In this document: piece after piece, positions 4,733 to 36,807 of the stretch
Layout: every line of letters begins with the position of its first letter
Position numbering within the stretch: the first letter of the stretch is position 1
From: a virus
Lineage: Duplodnaviria; Heunggongvirae; Uroviricota; Caudoviricetes
IMG/VR virus record: IMGVR_UViG_643348551_000008
Location: 1 to 44,793 of that record
DNA: 44,793 bases
Strand: one strand, 5' to 3'
Notes under the pieces: generated by a model
The model's input: only the letters and a program-made list of their open reading frames with translations
What the model was told of the DNA's origin: nothing
The model's database searches: none
Position numbers and translations under genes: made by a program

Positions 4733-7700
4733 TCAACGAATACTGATGCCGGAAGCGGCTTTTTTGGTCACAATCACCGTACAGTCGGTGATATTGCCTG
4801 CCCCCTGATTGCCTTTCTGGAAAATCTTAAACTCCAGAGTGACGCTTCCCCTGCCACTCGGCATATCAATAACTGCACTGTAACTACCGGGAATGGCCCC
4901 TTTAGTTTCTCTGGATGCGATTAATACGCCGTTTTTGCGAACTTCAAAACCATAACCCGTGTATCGCGTGCCTCCTGGGTTATTTCCGCTCCCCGGATCG
5001 TCATACGCTATACCGTTAAAAATAATGGGCGGAATAATAATCTGGCGGTCAAAGTTATGATCATCGCTGATGGTGACTGTAACCGTACCGTTTGGTGTTT
5101 CCGTGTTACCCCACGTACCGACTTTTTTCGGGAAGGCTTTTGATACAGCTTTAACGAAATCTCCTCTGACCTGGGTCGCCTCCAGCATGCCCTTAATCGT
5201 ACAGTTCTGGTTAATCGTGACATTGTTGAGCGTTCCTGAGTTCGCATTCACACTGCCACTGATATCCGCATTTTTCGCCGTCAGTCTCCCGTCTGATGTC
5301 AGGGAAAATGCCGGAGGATTACCGCCGCTGGTAATGGTGGGGGCCGTCAGGCGTTTCAGGAACACTTCATTCATGAATATCTGATCGCCCTGACCAACAA
5401 ACATCGGCTTTGTGTTGCCATTCGCAGGATTAATCATCGCAATCCTGTCTGCTGCCAGCAGCACCTGACTCTGCATGCCGTCAGGGGTGTTCTCAATACC
5501 GGCACCGATACCCGCAATATAAAGGCGTCCGTCCTGCATCTGCTGCAGCTTCACTGCCCACATGCTGTTCAGGTTATTATTTGTATCAACCTGAACCTTC
5601 TGTATCTGCTGGATCGCTGCACTCTGGTCTTCCAGTTTCTTATTGACGGTCTGTGTTATTTCATTGCTGACATCCGTTATGGACGTCCTGATTTCAGTCA
5701 GGTCAGGCGCAAGCTGACCGTTATCAATCTGCGTCCACAGCTCCTGAGCCAGATGGGTTTTCCCTATCTCGCCTTTGAAAAAATCCAGATAGCCTGATGC
5801 ATCATCACTCGGCTGACCGACAGCCTCCACGAATACCGATTTGCCAACGGTGTTCACACTGCGAACGTAAAAATAATAATCATGGCCCGGTTTGATATTG
5901 ATACTGGCGGCTATCCAGTACAGTGCCGTACCAAGATAACGCGCGCTGGTTTCAACCTGCCTGATATCCGCAATCCGTTTTTCCGAGAACCAGAACTCAA
6001 ACTGTACCGTCGGGTCATAAACCGCAAGATGCGGCGTGGCGGTTATCTGAAAATAGCCCGGTGTCAGCTCAATCCGAGACGGCGCTGCCGGTGCGGCAAT
6101 CCGGAACGATACCGATGCCGGATCGCCCTGCTGTCCCCACGCATTTACCGCCCGGACTGTCAGCCTGTAGTTCCCCAACGCCAGTTGTGTGAAGCGGTAT
6201 GTGGTTTCCGTCGTCCGGACCGTGCTGACCAGCCGCTCACTGCCGTCATCCGCTGTTACGGTCAGACGGAGCAGGAAGCTCACGCCCTTCACCACCTTCG
6301 GCGTGTCCCAGCGGGCCAGTACCTGATACTCCCCGCAGTCTGCAGTGACTTCGGCGGTCAGATGCTGCACTGCTGGCGGCGTGACACCATTCACCGTGCC
6401 GCTCTGGTCACCGTCAAAGTGCGCCCCGTTATCCACGATGGCCTCTTTCTCCGGCACATGCTGCACGGCAGTGATGGCATACGTGCCGTCGTCGTTCTCA
6501 CGGATACTCACGCAGCGGAACAGGCGCTGGCGCAGCGTCGGCAGCTTAAGCCCCCACACGCTGTATTCAGCAACACCGTCAGGAACCCGGCTCACTTTTA
6601 CCTTCACGCCGTCGGTGACGGACTGGACCTCCACGCTGACCGGATTGCCACTTCCGTCAACCAGGCTTATCAGCGTAGTACCGGAGGATGGCAGCGTGAT
6701 TTCACGGTCGAGCGTCAGCGTCCGGGTCTGGCTGTTCACCGCCAGCACGCGCCCGCCGATGCTGATACCGGCATAGTCATCATCGCAGATTTCAATGACA
6801 TCGCCCGGTACATGGCGAAGCCCTTCGGCACCCACGCTGAAGTCCACGGTCTGCGTTTCCAGCAGTTCTGTTTTAATCAGCCACAGCCCGGCGCGATGTG
6901 CCTGCCCCCGGCTGGTACAGCCAAAAGCATCCATCTTCGTGACGTTACGACCATAACGGGCAATGGCCTGCGTATCTTCAACAAGCTCTGTCGCCGTCTC
7001 CCAGCCGTTGTTCGGGTCAATCCAGTTCACCTCAACGGCATTATGGCGGTCCTTCAGGGCGCTGAAGCTGTAGCGGAACGGCGCGCCATTATCCGGCATC
7101 ACCACATTACTGCGGTTATAGGTCCACACCTTATCTGATGGTCGGTCCTGCACGAACGTCAGCGTCTGCCCGTTCCATACCGGCATACAGCGCATCGCCG
7201 AGCAGAAATCACTGAGCACATCCCACGCCTTGCGCTGTGTGGTCAGGTACGCATTACAGGTGATGCGCGGCTCCGTGCCGCCAAAGCCGTCCGGCACTGA
7301 CTGGTCGCAGTACTGGCCGATGACATACAGCACCCATTTGTCCACATCCGCCGCACCAAGACGTTTCCCCATGCCGTAGCGTGGATGGGTCAGCATATCC
7401 CACAGACACCAGGCCATGTTATTGCTGTATGCTGGCTTAAACGTTCCGTCCCAGATACCGCTGTATTGCCGCGTCTGCGGGTTATAGTTCGACGGCACCT
7501 GCAGAATACGCCCGCGCAGATGATAATTACGGCTCACCTGCTGGCTGCCGAACTGCTCCGAATCCACCTGTACGCCGACCAGTGCCGTGTTCGGGTAGCA
7601 CTGTTTCACATCGATGATTTCGGTGTATGACGACCAGAGCGTTTTGTTCTGCAGCTGGTCTGTGGTGCTGTCCGGCGTCATCCTGCGCATCCGTATACTG

Positions 7701-19315: not shown

Positions 19316-22996
<3,681 letters not shown>

Positions 22997-27178: not shown

Positions 27179-27253
<75 letters not shown>

Positions 27254-32343: not shown

Positions 32344-32600
32344 CAGCGCAGTACCTCCTGCACCAGCTTTTCAAACTTCCCAACCTTGGTTTCCAGCTCT
32401 GCCACACAGTCCACCAGCTCATCCACTGCTTTTTGTGCGCGATGTTTTGCTTGCATCAGTTCCCTGAGCGCTGGCACCATATCCCGACGAATGGCATCTT
32501 TTGTTACACCTGTTTTTTCCAGTTGTTCCGCCTGTCGCAACATTTCCTGTGCCTGTTTACGTAATTGTTCAGGGGTAAAAGTCATTGTCTGGTTGTTCAA
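32343..32600 (-). CDS. Hypothetical coiled-coil protein (85 aa)
   Basis: ORF only; position between helicase and Q. Confidence 0.4.
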
Positions 32601-33988
32601 AAGAAACGCTCCATCTTACTGCTGTCAGTTCGTTTGTTGCTGTATCTGCGCGGCTGAGGCTGCTGCATTGGGGTGGAAAGAATCTGTGCGCTTTCCTGAT
32701 CCACAGGCAGAAAATGTCCGTTATAAAAACGCCGATAAATCGTCCCCAGAGAACCGTTACGTTGTTTCGTGATATTGATTTCTGCGATGCCCCTGGCCTG
32801 CGTATCCGGGTTGTACACTTCATCCCTGTAAAGCATCAGAATGATGTCTGCATCCGCCTCTATTTCTCCGGAATTTTTCAGGTCTGAGTTCATGGGGCGT
32901 TTATTGGGTCTGGACTCCACACCGCGGGAGAGCTGGCTCAGCGCAATCAACGGAAAACCACCGGATTTTGCCAGGCCTTTAAGCCCCTTTGAGATTTCAC
33001 CCACGGCAAGGTCATGACGCCCCGTGGTTCGGGTTTTTATCAGTCCGAGATAATCAACCACCACCAGCGCCGTTTCCGGATGTTTAATCAGGTGGTGTTT
33101 CGTTGTTGCGCATATCTCGTCAATGGTCAGGTTCGCCTGGTCCACCATCCAGATATTGCGCCCGGTCATCCGCCCCACTCCTTGTGAGAAACGTGCCCAG
33201 TCTTCGTCTTCAAAGTGAGTGACAGATTTCAGGCGTGATACCGGCATTCCTCCAGCCGCAGATACCATGCGTTCACCAATCTGGATGTTCGCCATTTCCA
33301 TTGTGAACAGAAGAACACCATGCCCCTGCTCAGTCACCTTGTCGATGATATCCAGCGCCAGTTCGGTTTTGCCCATCGAAGGACGTGCAGCAATAAATAC
33401 CAGGTCGCCAGGCTCCATGCCGCCCGTTTTTGCGTCCAGTTCATCAATACCGGTCATCAACGTTCTGGATTTTTCCAGTCCCTGATTCCGGCATTCAACA
33501 CGCTCAACCACTTCCGGAAGCACATCATCAATATGTACCGGCTGAATAACGCCCTTTTCCGTCGACAATGAGGCCATCATGTTCTGCGCATCCTTCAGGG
33601 CATCTTCAGCTGCTTCACAGGTATGCGCATCACGTAATTTCTGCAGCGCCTCATTCAGTGTTTTTTCTGCATCGCGCAATGCGGCATTGCGTCGCAACGC
33701 TGCAACATAGTGCTCCAGTGAAGACTTCACCCAAGTTTTACGCCCAGTATCAGTAATCACCGGAGCAAGTTCCGGCATCTCATTGCACAGCAGCACAGGA
33801 TCAATCACACCTGAAACACGAGCCTGTCTGCAGATGCCTGTGTAGATATCCCTATACGCTCGTACAGAAAAAACGTCCGCAGGTAGTGTGGCCAGAATAT
33901 CCATCACTTCAGGATCTGCCCCACGCAGAAAGAACGCGCCAATGACAGCGCCTTCCAGGTCATCGTTACGCCAGACTGGGGTTGTCAT
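32597..33988 (-). CDS. Replicative DNA helicase (DnaB-like)
   Basis: Track ORF trimmed to MTTPVWRNDDLEG; Walker A-like GKTELALDI and RecA-like C-terminal domain. Confidence 0.8.
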   Translation of the reverse strand: MTTPVWRNDDLEGAVIGAFFLRGADPEVMDILATLPADVFSVRAYRDIYTGICRQARVSGVIDPVLLCNEMPELAPVITDTGRKTWVKSSLEHYVAALRRNAALRDAEKTLNEALQKLRDAHTCEAAEDALKDAQNMMASLSTEKGVIQPVHIDDVLPEVVERVECRNQGLEKSRTLMTGIDELDAKTGGMEPGDLVFIAARPSMGKTELALDIIDKVTEQGHGVLLFTMEMANIQIGERMVSAAGGMPVSRLKSVTHFEDEDWARFSQGVGRMTGRNIWMVDQANLTIDEICATTKHHLIKHPETALVVVDYLGLIKTRTTGRHDLAVGEISKGLKGLAKSGGFPLIALSQLSRGVESRPNKRPMNSDLKNSGEIEADADIILMLYRDEVYNPDTQARGIAEINITKQRNGSLGTIYRRFYNGHFLPVDQESAQILSTPMQQPQPRRYSNKRTDSSKMERFF

Positions 33989-34872
33989 GCAGCCACACCT
34001 CTGATACGAGAACGGTAGCTGGGCCAGTTGAACGACAACCAGTTGCGCCCCCCGTCTGTGATCCTGTCGGCAATGCGGGGGCTGATGAACACCCACAACT
34101 CTTCCGGTGAAAGGTTGCTGATCAGAATGGTGGGCAGGATACTTTCGTACCGGGCATTGATAATTTCCTGCAAAATAGCCATTTCAGCCGCGCTGCCAAA
34201 CTGAACACCAACTTCGTCGATGATCAGCAAATCCATTGACGCATAATGCTCAATAACTTCATCCGCTGTTTTTTCGCTGTCATTCCGCCAGCAGTTTTTC
34301 ACAGCACGGGTAAGGCGCATCACGTCGGTGATCTCCACACTGGCCAGATAGTTACGGATGATGTGTTTTGCCATTGATACCGCCAGATGATTTTTCCCGG
34401 TTCCGCAACTACCAGTCATAACAAGACTGGTACCGTTCTCCAGCATATCTGGCCAGTTCTCCGCATAGCGGCGACAGGCCGCAAGATTTCTGGCTGCGTC
34501 AGGATTAACCTCCAGATAATTATCAAACTCGCAGTCCCGAAAACGCAGGGCAATTCCGGCGTTATCAGTCAGCTCTTCCGCCTTGAGGGACGACAGCTCC
34601 ATGGTCAAATCGTTGGCCTCAGCGATCAAGCAGTCAGGGCAGCATGAAATTTTTTCTCTGTCCTCGCCATTACGATCGCTCCACACCAGTATATGCGTAC
34701 TGTATTTACCGTGTTTTTCGCAATATCCGCGGCCTTCACGCATCAGGCAGGAACGATAAGGCCATGGCTTTTCGCCCTTCTGAGCAAATGCAATCTCTGC
34801 CCGTAACTCATCCATTCGCGCCTGTAGTCTTTTTTGTTGTTCACGCAGGTTAAACGTCATCATCGCTGTCAC
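33985..34872 (-). CDS. DnaC/IstB-like AAA+ helicase loader with N-terminal Cys-rich region
   Basis: Walker A GSCGTGKNHLA and Walker B LLIIDEVG; immediately precedes the helicase. Confidence 0.75.
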   Translation of the reverse strand: MTAMMTFNLREQQKRLQARMDELRAEIAFAQKGEKPWPYRSCLMREGRGYCEKHGKYSTHILVWSDRNGEDREKISCCPDCLIAEANDLTMELSSLKAEELTDNAGIALRFRDCEFDNYLEVNPDAARNLAACRRYAENWPDMLENGTSLVMTGSCGTGKNHLAVSMAKHIIRNYLASVEITDVMRLTRAVKNCWRNDSEKTADEVIEHYASMDLLIIDEVGVQFGSAAEMAILQEIINARYESILPTILISNLSPEELWVFISPRIADRITDGGRNWLSFNWPSYRSRIRGVAA

Positions 34873-34873
34873 C

Positions 34874-35698
34874 TCAGAATGTCAGTTTGTCACTGGATTT
34901 ACCGAATTTGTCAGACATGGCTCCCAGGCCAGCCAGGACATCGACCTGTCGCTGTCGCCCACCTCCGGGAGCGGCTGGCTGTTGCCAGAATTCTTCGAAG
35001 TGACGATCGGGTCCAAAGAACGTCGCGGCCTGCTTCACGAACTGTGTGCCGGTATTTCCTGTAGCACGTACCCAGGCGGCATAACGTCTCACACCATCAA
35101 GCATGGTCTCCGGTTTTATTCCCTCCCTGATACGGGCTTTCCAGGCTTTGAAGGCTGCTGACTTGGAATTGCCACCAGCACGTTTGGGATATTCCTGCCA
35201 GGCCTGTTCAAATTCCGGTGAATATTCCTGTCGGGCAGAGCGCGCTGGTGCAGACGCGTCAGCGGGTGCGCCAATTGTTGGTTCATTGACTGGTTCTTTG
35301 ACTGGTTCAAAAGAGTGACTGGTTCTGGGTGAATCTCCTGCACTACCCCCTGGTGCAACTCCTGCACCACCTGGTGAATTTGCTGCACTAGGTAGTGAAT
35401 TATTTGCACTACCCCCTGGTGAATCTTTTGCACCATCAAGACGAAGAAGATAAATATTGCTCGAGTTCCCTTTTTCACCTTTCCGGGAAACTTTTTTTAC
35501 CAGTCCGGATTCACAAAGAGCCGTAATATGATTCATCACAGAACGTTTGCTAATCTCGCACTGATCAGCAATATGCTGATAGCTGGGCCAGCACTCGCCC
35601 TGATCGCTGGCATTATCAGCCAGCTTAATCAGAACCAGTTTTCGCAACGGATTTCCCACGCGAATTTTCATCGCTTTCACCATCAGCTCCATGCTCAT
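34874..35698 (-). CDS. Replication initiator/replisome organiser (O-like), N-terminal HTH with Pro/Gly-rich linker
   Basis: 274-aa ORF; N-terminal HTH-like region; iteron repeats embedded in the coding sequence. Confidence 0.65.
   Translation of the reverse strand: MSMELMVKAMKIRVGNPLRKLVLIKLADNASDQGECWPSYQHIADQCEISKRSVMNHITALCESGLVKKVSRKGEKGNSSNIYLLRLDGAKDSPGGSANNSLPSAANSPGGAGVAPGGSAGDSPRTSHSFEPVKEPVNEPTIGAPADASAPARSARQEYSPEFEQAWQEYPKRAGGNSKSAAFKAWKARIREGIKPETMLDGVRRYAAWVRATGNTGTQFVKQAATFFGPDRHFEEFWQQPAAPGGGRQRQVDVLAGLGAMSDKFGKSSDKLTF
35287..35421. repeat. Putative replication origin iterons: 3x TGACTGGTTC and 4x TGCAC(TACCCC/CAC/TAGGTA)CTGGTG with ~21-24 bp spacing
   Basis: Directly visible direct repeats inside the O-like gene. 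Confidence 0.6.
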
Positions 35699-35919
35699 AA
35701 CACACCTCCCAGGCGTTTAAACATTTTTCCGGACTGAAACGCCATCAACGGATAGCTAATGGTGTAGTTACGCCCCAGTAATTCACACACGACTTTCTGG
35801 CTTTCGGTGCTGACCAGGCAAACCCGCAGAACGTGACCGTTGCTGGTGGCGAACCACTGCCCCACACGGGGGCAACGGTTGTATCGGTGATACAGGGAAT
35901 TAACGATGCGGCGAATCAT
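35695..35919 (-). CDS. Hypothetical protein (74 aa)
   Basis: ORF only; in the early-right operon between the 77-aa ORF and the O-like gene. Confidence 0.35.
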   Translation of the reverse strand: MIRRIVNSLYHRYNRCPRVGQWFATSNGHVLRVCLVSTESQKVVCELLGRNYTISYPLMAFQSGKMFKRLGGVL

Positions 35920-36149
35920 GGATGTACCTCCTGCACATCAGCCATGAGCATTTTACTGGCTGTTTCCAGCGCCTGGTCGGCGCTAATTTGCATGACAGCC
36001 AGTGAATGAGGAACGAAAGTCCCGGCATATTCTGTTTCACTGGTGGCGTGCTTATGCGCCCTGTCTGCAATAACAGAGATGTCAATAAGCGCATCCATCA
36101 GAGTTTTAATTACCGTAACAGTGGTATCTGAATAATGGTTATTACACAT
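35916..36149 (-). CDS. Hypothetical protein (77 aa)
   Basis: ORF only; overlapping-stop arrangement with neighbours. Confidence 0.35.
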   Translation of the reverse strand: MCNNHYSDTTVTVIKTLMDALIDISVIADRAHKHATSETEYAGTFVPHSLAVMQISADQALETASKMLMADVQEVHP

Positions 36150-36807
36150 GACGCGCCTCCCGTTGATTACAGCGGAAAGCAGTGTGAGTCAGGCTGGTTT
36201 CGGCCTCATGAAATGCTTCAATACAGCTCTCGTAGTACCGCATTGTGCGCAGACTTAACCCAAGCTGAAGCATCATCAGACCATCAAGGGTGATGTAATA
36301 ACCACGCAGGGAATCGCCATACACGTGGTAAGTACCCGGAATGAAATTACGGGAGAAGAATTCACGTGAGCAGTTCAGATACTCGATTTTGTCGACGATG
36401 TTCTGGTGCATGCGCTTAAAGTGGCAGGCAACATGCAGGGAGAAAATAACAGCTTTGCCGTTGACGACTTCGATTTTCAGGTATGGGGAAGTTGGGACTG
36501 TAGCCATGATGGCAGCCTCCGTATGCAATGGATAACTTCCACCACCGGAGGTTCCAATCTCACTGGTGGTGAACTGGACAGGGTTGGAACTACCGGCGCA
36601 TACGGAAACCGGCGAGCCTTTCGGCTCCCCTGCCCAGCCCACCATAATTCTGGCGTGCGTGAGCGCGGACGATAAAAAAGACGCTGGCGCGTCATATATC
36701 GCCGTATGCAATTCCGGGGTTCCAATCCCGACACCCGCTTTATAAGGTGCCAGAACAGTGTAACGTCCCGAAATTGCAGAATCAATATTTAGGCTTGAAA
36801 CATTCAT
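36142..36807 (-). CDS. Hypothetical protein (221 aa)
   Basis: Long ORF in the early-right operon; no family recognised; start uncertain. Confidence 0.4.
   Translation of the reverse strand: MNVSSLNIDSAISGRYTVLAPYKAGVGIGTPELHTAIYDAPASFLSSALTHARIMVGWAGEPKGSPVSVCAGSSNPVQFTTSEIGTSGGGSYPLHTEAAIMATVPTSPYLKIEVVNGKAVIFSLHVACHFKRMHQNIVDKIEYLNCSREFFSRNFIPGTYHVYGDSLRGYYITLDGLMMLQLGLSLRTMRYYESCIEAFHEAETSLTHTAFRCNQREARHV

Follow-up and report, generated by a model that had tools for sequence, protein, structure and literature searches.

Where does replication start in a lambdoid prophage whose initiator bears no detectable similarity to lambda O? The window analysed here is the whole of a 44,793-nucleotide (nt) Caudoviricetes record in IMG/VR (IMGVR_UViG_643348551_000008). 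It carries the gene of a 274-residue replication initiator (34874-35698, minus strand), and positions 35279-35433, inside this gene, are very likely the replication origin of the prophage, recognised by the protein that the gene encodes. The region consists of five dyad iterons followed by a conserved box. We favour this reading, which is a comparative one, because the repeats are real and unique to the locus, they lie at a fitting place in the gene of an initiator family, they are constrained as DNA, and they covary with the recognition helix of the protein. It is favoured also because the N-domain, iterons and box form one unit, a relative is a mosaic with a lambda-O C-domain, the geometry is that of the lambda ori, and the codons of the box are frozen. 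The candidate origin occupies the linker between two protein domains, and there the needs of the DNA would override protein conservation.

The iteron array (35329-35433, minus strand) comprises five 15-bp dyads with the coding-strand motif GTGCA-N5-T(T/G)CAC, located at 35419-35433, 35395-35409, 35374-35388, 35353-35367 and 35329-35343. The original prediction, made by a model from the bare sequence, had proposed repeats at a spacing of about 21-24 bp between 35287 and 35421. The measured centre-to-centre distances of 24, 21, 21 and 24 bp agree with this; the count rises from four to five, and the end coordinate has to move, as it clips the iteron nearest the gene start (35419-35433). The dyad motif occurs five times in the 44.8-kb window, each time within the array, where 0.6 occurrences are expected, and none of 100 shuffles contained as many. 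The four GCAC...CTGGTG copies described at the outset are real repeats, but as units they are the four junctions between the five dyad sites. Tandem Repeats Finder detects the 12-mer of the box and none of the iterons, because the centres and spacers differ among the units. Iterons and box together fill codons 89-141, a Gly/Pro/Ser/Ala-rich stretch modelled as disordered (predicted local distance difference test, pLDDT, ~30) between the winged helix and the helical C-domain, which is the linker where the repeats had been placed.

Dyad symmetry, the reading frames of homologues, the pattern of substitutions relative to phage SfV and the conservation of the half-sites all point to DNA sites rather than peptide repeats. 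Compared with SfV orf39, to which it is 87% identical in nucleotides, the window gene shows 19 synonymous and 3 nonsynonymous differences in codons 1-87, whereas codons 88-141 show 0 synonymous and 6 nonsynonymous differences, all of them in a dyad centre or in the spacers between iterons. In a set of 33 unique relatives with this specificity, variation affects 7 of the 50 half-site positions (11 minor-allele counts), compared with 19 of 43 linker positions (121 minor-allele counts). Homologues space their units by 22-23 bp and therefore read them in different frames, with distances of 23, 22 and 24 bp in Klebsiella phage RothC and 45 and 23 bp in mEp554. Iteron number ranges from about 2 to about 9 among otherwise near-identical proteins (variants are P0020, P0022-P0024, P0004 and P0044, and loci L048, L053 and L109), and the EPVx 12-mer of the box occurs in 1 to 4 copies among otherwise near-identical initiators, the kind of variation that tandem sites in DNA should show. 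Only one or two iterons are present in Salmonella phage SF6 and in some Pseudomonas prophages. A G5 tract lies ahead of the last iteron in the window (35344-35352), and a run of G5 or C5 is found at this place in nearly every specificity class (loci L001-L290; for example CAGGGGGTAGTGCA, CACCCCCTATGCC and CAGGGGGTGGGGCAG). The distance from the last iteron to the box is always 1-2 nt, a fixed geometry.

The winged-helix DNA-binding domain, assigned from Pfam and AlphaFold (AF2), corresponds to N-terminal residues 1-88 and is encoded by 35435-35698 on the minus strand. Its recognition helix spans residues 51-64, and the variable residues 50-56 (SKRSVMN in the window) likely set iteron specificity, as judged from covariation; the invariant positions of the N-domain all lie outside residues 49-56 and the wing. 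At least 25 N-domain clusters and 39 helix motif classes were compared, and in them the iteron half-site changes with the helix motif, following the first half of the helix. SKRSVMN goes with GTGCA or GTGAA, SKSAVR(N/D/A/S) with (T/C)(A/G)TGCC...GGCA, DRSTVR(K/R) with GTAGGCC, (G/S)RSTVK with GGGGCAG...CTGCCCC, SERSVQN with GGTGCAAATGCTGCACC, and SRKTAIG or TRTTAIN with GTGTA...TACAC. The different helices DKRTAMR and SKRSVMR, both ending in R, share the half-site GTGAC...GTCAC. Such a pattern would follow from the winged helix reading the iterons. The proposal that distinct repeats reflect a distinct initiator specificity thus appears sound for the iterons, which track the recognition helix; the TGACTGGTTC copies that had been counted with them are not iterons but part of a box that stays the same whatever the specificity.

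That box (35279-35326, minus strand) reads AGAACCAGTCAC-TCTTTT-GAACCAGTCA-AA-GAACCAGTCA-AT-GAACCA, its family-shared part being 35292-35326. The form common to the family is AGAACCAGTCAC-(TCTTTT)-GAACCAGTCA-nn-GAACC, to which the window adds one and a half 12-mers, and it begins 2 nt past the last iteron here and 1-2 nt past it across the family. The three copies of TGACTGGTTC (35287, 35299 and 35316) are the complement of the box; there are exactly three in the 44.8-kb window where 0.05 are expected, and none of 100 shuffles reaches three. The third copy is 17 nt from the second and so falls in a different frame (RTSH versus EPV), which means that the box 10-mer is read in two frames within one gene.

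The box is unchanged across all specificity classes. A first family survey was retrieved by the box pattern and was biased for box conservation, so codon statistics were restricted to loci retrieved via the protein: the box is present with at most four mismatches in 72 of these 80 loci, and codons were counted in the 70 (from 70 species) that carry the box peptide motif. The codons were AGA in 67 of 67 cases, ACC in 40 of 40, AGT in 69 of 69, CAC in 58 of 58, TCT in 67 of 67, GAA in 68 of 68, CCA in 54 of 57 and GTC in 65 of 67. Invariant N-domain residues of the same genes (the KLVLIKLADNA and CWPS motifs) are encoded by 2-6 codons each. Synonymous sites of the box are frozen even in high-GC Pseudomonas hosts, and the variants that exist are nonsynonymous (ACC to ATC, CAC to AAC, CCA to TCA). 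The 6-nt spacer of the box keeps pyrimidine-rich while the amino acids that it encodes vary among SF, PS, FS, LS and SL. Judging from translations, the Shewanella and mEp554 variants appear to keep the box motif in another frame or spacing. In the average of the 70 loci, A+T content within ±400 bp peaks at the box (61% versus 48%). A look by eye, with no formal scan, gave no convincing match to a DnaA box or an IHF site in the box. A programmed frameshift at the box was considered and dropped, as the alternative frame is open for 120 codons and frozen codons would be left unexplained. In Pseudomonas bharatica (L221) and Erwinia tracheiphila (L263), the initiator open reading frames (ORFs) end early at the box, with PEPVTLLNQ and then a stop; a frameshift in the repeat region is the apparent cause, and these are probably copies in decaying prophages.

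How widespread is this arrangement? More than 5,500 relatives of the initiator were found, all with PF13730. Homologues of the N-domain, at 54-72% identity, occur in phages of Escherichia, Salmonella, Pectobacterium, Klebsiella, Vibrio and Stenotrophomonas, as well as in 80 bacterial species retrieved via the protein. Repeats are not absent from homologous initiator genes: nearly all carry dyad arrays of other sequence at the same gene position, mostly in 3-5 copies, and a few have one or two dyad repeats only. This initiator type includes SfV orf39, ST64B sb42 and the initiators of cdtI, mEp460 and many Stx2 phages, and it is found in 1229 of 5426 complete E. coli genomes, about a quarter.

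The genes are mosaics. SfV-type genes match the query at 109-825 only, and thus share everything except the last ~36 codons, and other genes match 1-405 only. One mosaic joint lies directly past the box (~35275) and a second at ~34981, the start of the last ~36 residues, so that the C-terminal domain and tail (34877-35275, minus strand) form a swappable module. Three alternative tails occur among the relatives, and the linker is hypervariable in length and sequence. In other E. coli prophages, what is shared with the window is limited to the C-domain, its tail and the DnaC-like and DnaB-like genes; right past the box position, this part adjoins N-modules that are unrelated, have repeats of their own and lack any shared box. 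In one such N-module, TTCAGAWTCTGAA dyads precede two CATGAACC repeats; in another, four ACAGAGATTACA 12-mers come after GGGAAAC repeats. Placing short direct repeats behind the iterons may be how these origins are generally built. Two E. coli prophage loci, L291 (2501-3427) and L292 (2501-3409), are examples of unrelated N-modules placed on the same C-domain and DnaC-like/DnaB-like genes.

Conversely, at least 10 C-domain types are found on the same N-domain/iteron/box module. An IMG/VR contig, L193, combines the same N-domain type, iterons of the form GTGAA...TTCAC and the box with a lambda-O C-domain (E = 7e-34); its initiator ends at 5569 and the next ORF, from 5551, is Phage_lambda_P (5e-63). 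By its sequence this initiator is a natural hybrid that ties the family to the lambda O/P system. The downstream partners go with the C-domain: the lambda-O type is accompanied by P, the window tail by DnaC-like and DnaB-like genes, the ZF40 and BUCT708 types by a DnaB-like gene, and the SfV type by none. In SfV (orf40, L001 2411-2899) and SfII (L294 2873-3358), a PerC-like/MarR-like small protein and then Dam are encoded after the initiator, and phages of this type have no helicase loader or helicase gene there; presumably they recruit host DnaB/DnaC via their different C-terminal tail. Since exchange affects the C-domains and leaves the N-domain, iterons and box intact as one unit, iterons and box can be assigned to the N-domain, and the C-domain to the helicase-delivery partner.

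These relationships suggest how the origin would work. Dimers of the N-terminal winged helix would bind the five dyad iterons, with residues 50-56 (SKRSVMN) of the recognition helix reading the GTGCA/GTGAA half-sites, as the covariation indicates. If the lambda O-some is a guide, the five dimers, bound to sites that are about two helical turns from one another, may build a higher-order complex that acts on the adjacent box (AGAACCAGTCAC-Y6-GAACCAGTCA...), 2 nt past the last iteron. Strand opening or helicase entry would most likely take place at the box, and the invariant part of the initiator may touch it, in the way that plasmid Rep proteins contact the repeats of their unwinding elements. 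The mosaic covariation suggests that the C-terminal domain and tail recruit the phage-encoded DnaC-like loader and DnaB-like helicase. Early rightward transcription, on the minus strand here, would pass through the origin as in lambda.

Several points weigh against placing the origin here. No strongly A+T-rich tract lies beside the array; the box reaches only ~58-61% A+T, far below the unwinding tract of lambda, and 35420-35500, the wing-coding DNA that flanks the iterons opposite the box, is richer in A+T in the window (60-68%), so unwinding may begin on either side. The box also encodes a conserved peptide, RTSHSFEPVxEP, which may have a protein role in addition to the DNA role. Many of the loci compared may share ancestry by recent transfer, a possibility controlled for by contrasting box codons with N-domain codons from the same loci. 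The five window iterons share one reading frame, so the frame argument rests on the homologues. Finally, the literature searched, which was incomplete, gave no binding, unwinding or replication data for the family.

Could the repeats be nothing but a by-product of a repetitive, low-complexity Gly/Pro/Ser linker, generated by peptide-repeat coding or slippage and devoid of DNA function? The shared frame of the five window units, which encode a loose peptide repeat (A/G)xxSPGGS, the disorder of the linker and a copy number that varies as slippage would give are what such a process would produce. A peptide repeat, however, has no need for each unit to be an inverted repeat, nor for homologues to hold the same DNA unit in different frames at spacings of 22 and 23 bp. 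Against SfV, the substitutions avoid the half-sites and run 0 synonymous to 6 nonsynonymous in the repeat stretch and 19 to 3 in the N-domain, the half-site bases are the least variable, and the repeat sequence shifts along with the recognition helix. Protein-level coding therefore seems a very remote explanation of the repeats. It is also improbable, if a little less so, that the iterons are bound by the initiator for autoregulation or copy control, as a transcriptional roadblock or by handcuffing, while replication starts elsewhere in the prophage. Plasmid iterons serve initiation as well as control, and the modest A+T content around the array leans the same way; but the dyad motif is found nowhere else in the 44.8-kb window, so that the initiator has no other candidate site there, a mere roadblock would hardly account for the neighbouring box with its constraint at the DNA level, and the arrangement matches the experimentally defined lambda ori (PMC7466680).

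The box invites a rival of its own, namely that it is kept as a short linear peptide motif, RTSHSFEPVxEP, docking a conserved partner, or as a homologous 'linker' for module exchange, rather than as origin DNA. The peptide is indeed conserved, the mosaic joints fall right past the box and its A+T content is modest, yet synonymous sites that are frozen while the variants are nonsynonymous are the opposite of what selection on a protein leaves. The spacer stays pyrimidine-rich despite changing amino acids, the 10-mer is used in two frames of one gene, the Shewanella and mEp554 variants appear from translations to preserve the DNA motif in other frames or spacings, and joints to unrelated N-modules occur without a shared box. 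On balance we regard this peptide or linker explanation as unlikely, though less so than the two above. A more ambitious reading of the box, which we advance tentatively and at somewhat less than an even chance, is that AGAACCAGTCAC-Y6-GAACCAGTCA-NN-GAACC (~35 bp) is an undescribed, sequence-specific core origin element of the whole initiator family, read by the invariant part of the initiator. The box would then stay constant as DNA inside a coding region with the iterons and recognition helix free to diversify. The box does not change from host to host, yet it is different in unrelated initiator families of the same host; because it is host-independent but family-dependent, the invariant part of the initiator rather than a host factor would read it, for instance in single-stranded form while the strands open. 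We found no description of this origin or box in the literature searched, the coverage of which was incomplete, so an earlier description is possible; the box may be a new feature, and its role in opening or loading is inferred.

The origin-within-initiator organisation that had been proposed by likeness to lambda is supported by the comparative evidence: the geometry is the same and the repeat sequence distinct. The lambda ori has four 18-bp dyad iterons, spaced by 20, 24 and 23 bp in the middle of O and followed by an A+T-rich tract (PMC7466680). As in lambda, and also in Stx phages 933W and P27, which have four to six dyad iterons about 20-24 bp apart, the iterons of the window are mid-gene, between regions encoding an N-terminal DNA-binding domain and a C-terminal partner-binding domain, with a second origin segment on the C-terminal side, helicase-delivery genes next and early transcription through the site. 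By the same comparison, the division of labour between N and C halves in the window family is the classical lambda O pattern. Unlike lambda, the window has an N-domain of HTH_36 rather than Phage_rep_O and five 15-bp iterons of other sequence. Its post-iteron segment is a repeated, sequence-specific box of ~60% A+T instead of a long, highly A+T-rich tract, and its partners are a DnaC-like loader and a phage DnaB-like helicase instead of P with host DnaB. Gene 18 of P22 and gene 18 of phage L hold their own distinct repeat sets inside a lambdoid initiator gene, which are read as ori (PMC8022706). They resemble the window in initiator-linked specificity and in a DnaB-type helicase gene downstream, and differ from it in repeat sequence and length, phage L having six 11-bp repeats (PMC8022706). 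The RK2 TrfA and F RepE systems, where iterons are followed by 12-mers or 13-mers in the opening region and Rep contacts one strand (PMC4081077, PMC10602881), are the model proposed for the GAACCAGTCA box. Their origins are intergenic and clearly A+T-rich, whereas that of the window would be intragenic, with single-stranded-DNA contact suggested by analogy only.

The window arrangement is also reminiscent of plasmid initiators in one organisational respect, as RepA_N plasmids keep their origin inside the rep gene. In RepA_N initiators such as those of pSK41 and pTZ2162, semi-palindromic iterons are recognised by an N-terminal winged helix, and the C-domain is specific to the host or partner (PMC7145576). 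The likeness to RepA_N and DnaD proteins is that of a structural and organisational analogue, with weak fold matches (E = 0.016-0.04), and unlike the RepA_N plasmids the window family belongs to a phage context and to gammaproteobacterial hosts.

To which family does the initiator itself belong? It matches Pfam HTH_36 (PF13730) with 43.6 bits against a cutoff of 25, and PHROG 270 (3.7e-89) and PHROG 8540 (2.5e-61), labelled 'replication initiation protein / O-like'. DnaD_N (PF21984) scores 24.3 bits, under its cutoff of 27, and Pfam RepA_N gives no match. Lambda O itself matches Phage_rep_O (PF04492), the family of its N-domain, at 5.7e-36; the window initiator has no Pfam match to Phage_rep_O, and pairwise BLASTP against lambda O yields spurious short matches only. 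Homology to lambda O was rejected, since neither Pfam nor BLASTP detects similarity. The description of the gene as O-like accordingly holds only for probable function, mosaic context and PHROG label, the family being HTH_36 and not Phage_rep_O.

The protein consists of the winged helix (residues 1-88), a disordered linker (89-156) and a helical C-domain with tail. The alignment-based AlphaFold model, which is good for the N-domain only and moderate for the C-domain, predicts the winged helix confidently (pLDDT 72-89 for residues 1-90), gives residues 93-156 a pLDDT of ~30 with no secondary structure, and places helices in residues 161-262; a single-sequence model (pLDDT 40.8) was too poor and was not used. 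Foldseek returned generic winged-helix matches only (E >= 0.006), among them 2v79, 4pql, 4pt7 and 5kbj, which are weak (E = 0.016-0.04), and the PDB holds no relatives by sequence. With fold matches this generic, the protein could not be placed in any closer structural family.

Directly downstream of the initiator lies the gene of a DnaC/IstB-like AAA+ helicase loader (33985-34872, minus strand; Pfam IstB_IS21 5e-15; PHROG 50, DnaC-like helicase loader; NCBIfam DnaC 9.5e-38, which is under the curated cutoff). It is followed by the gene of a DnaB-family replicative helicase (32597-33988, minus strand; Pfam DnaB_C 1e-72; PHROG 19; TIGR00665 8e-93; RefSeq annotation of the identical locus). On its upstream side the initiator is preceded by two small ORFs, by genes of the Ash and Rha families and by a divergent LexA/cI-type repressor. 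With the order cI/cro side, Rha/Ash, initiator, DnaC-like, DnaB-like and Q, the region is the early-right operon of a lambdoid prophage. No sigma-70-like promoter was found on either strand of 34800-36300, and no Rfam family at E <= 1 in the searched segment, none overlapping the box, so an RNA or promoter explanation was rejected. A 120-codon ORF in an alternative frame of the minus strand (35116-35478) overlaps the repeat region and is most likely a by-product of stop-poor repeat sequence.

An identical initiator gene is present in a prophage of E. coli C311 (NZ_CP062204.1 1231470-1232294; L003 20001-20825). RefSeq/PGAP flags that copy as a pseudogene ('incomplete; missing C-terminus') and annotates 20079-20825 only. 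The flagged ORF is intact, and its alternative C-terminal tail is common to many full-length proteins (a 141-member cluster and a Klebsiella group); the mosaic tail seems to have caused a false flag. A tRNA-Gly gene (anticodon TCC) lies at 27179-27253 on the minus strand, in the late/lysis-proximal region of the prophage. Its position is ~700 bp off from the C311 locus map, and hence the window is not collinear with C311 throughout.

That an initiator gene with modular N and C halves can contain the origin is textbook knowledge from lambda, so the finding extends a known pattern and overturns nothing. Databases label this initiator type merely 'helix-turn-helix domain-containing protein', and placing its origin would allow rational mini-replicons and the typing of these prophages by incompatibility and specificity; the prophages to be typed include toxin-converting phages, in which replication drives toxin output. 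The natural pairs of helix and half-site are a ready dataset for a recognition code of winged helices. The codon-frozen box would be a DNA element that overrides coding constraints and a candidate opening or loading site. If this is true, the box is a fixed 'opening/loading' site coupled to exchangeable 'address' sites, common to Escherichia, Klebsiella, Pseudomonas, Vibrio, Shewanella, Aeromonas, Stenotrophomonas and others.

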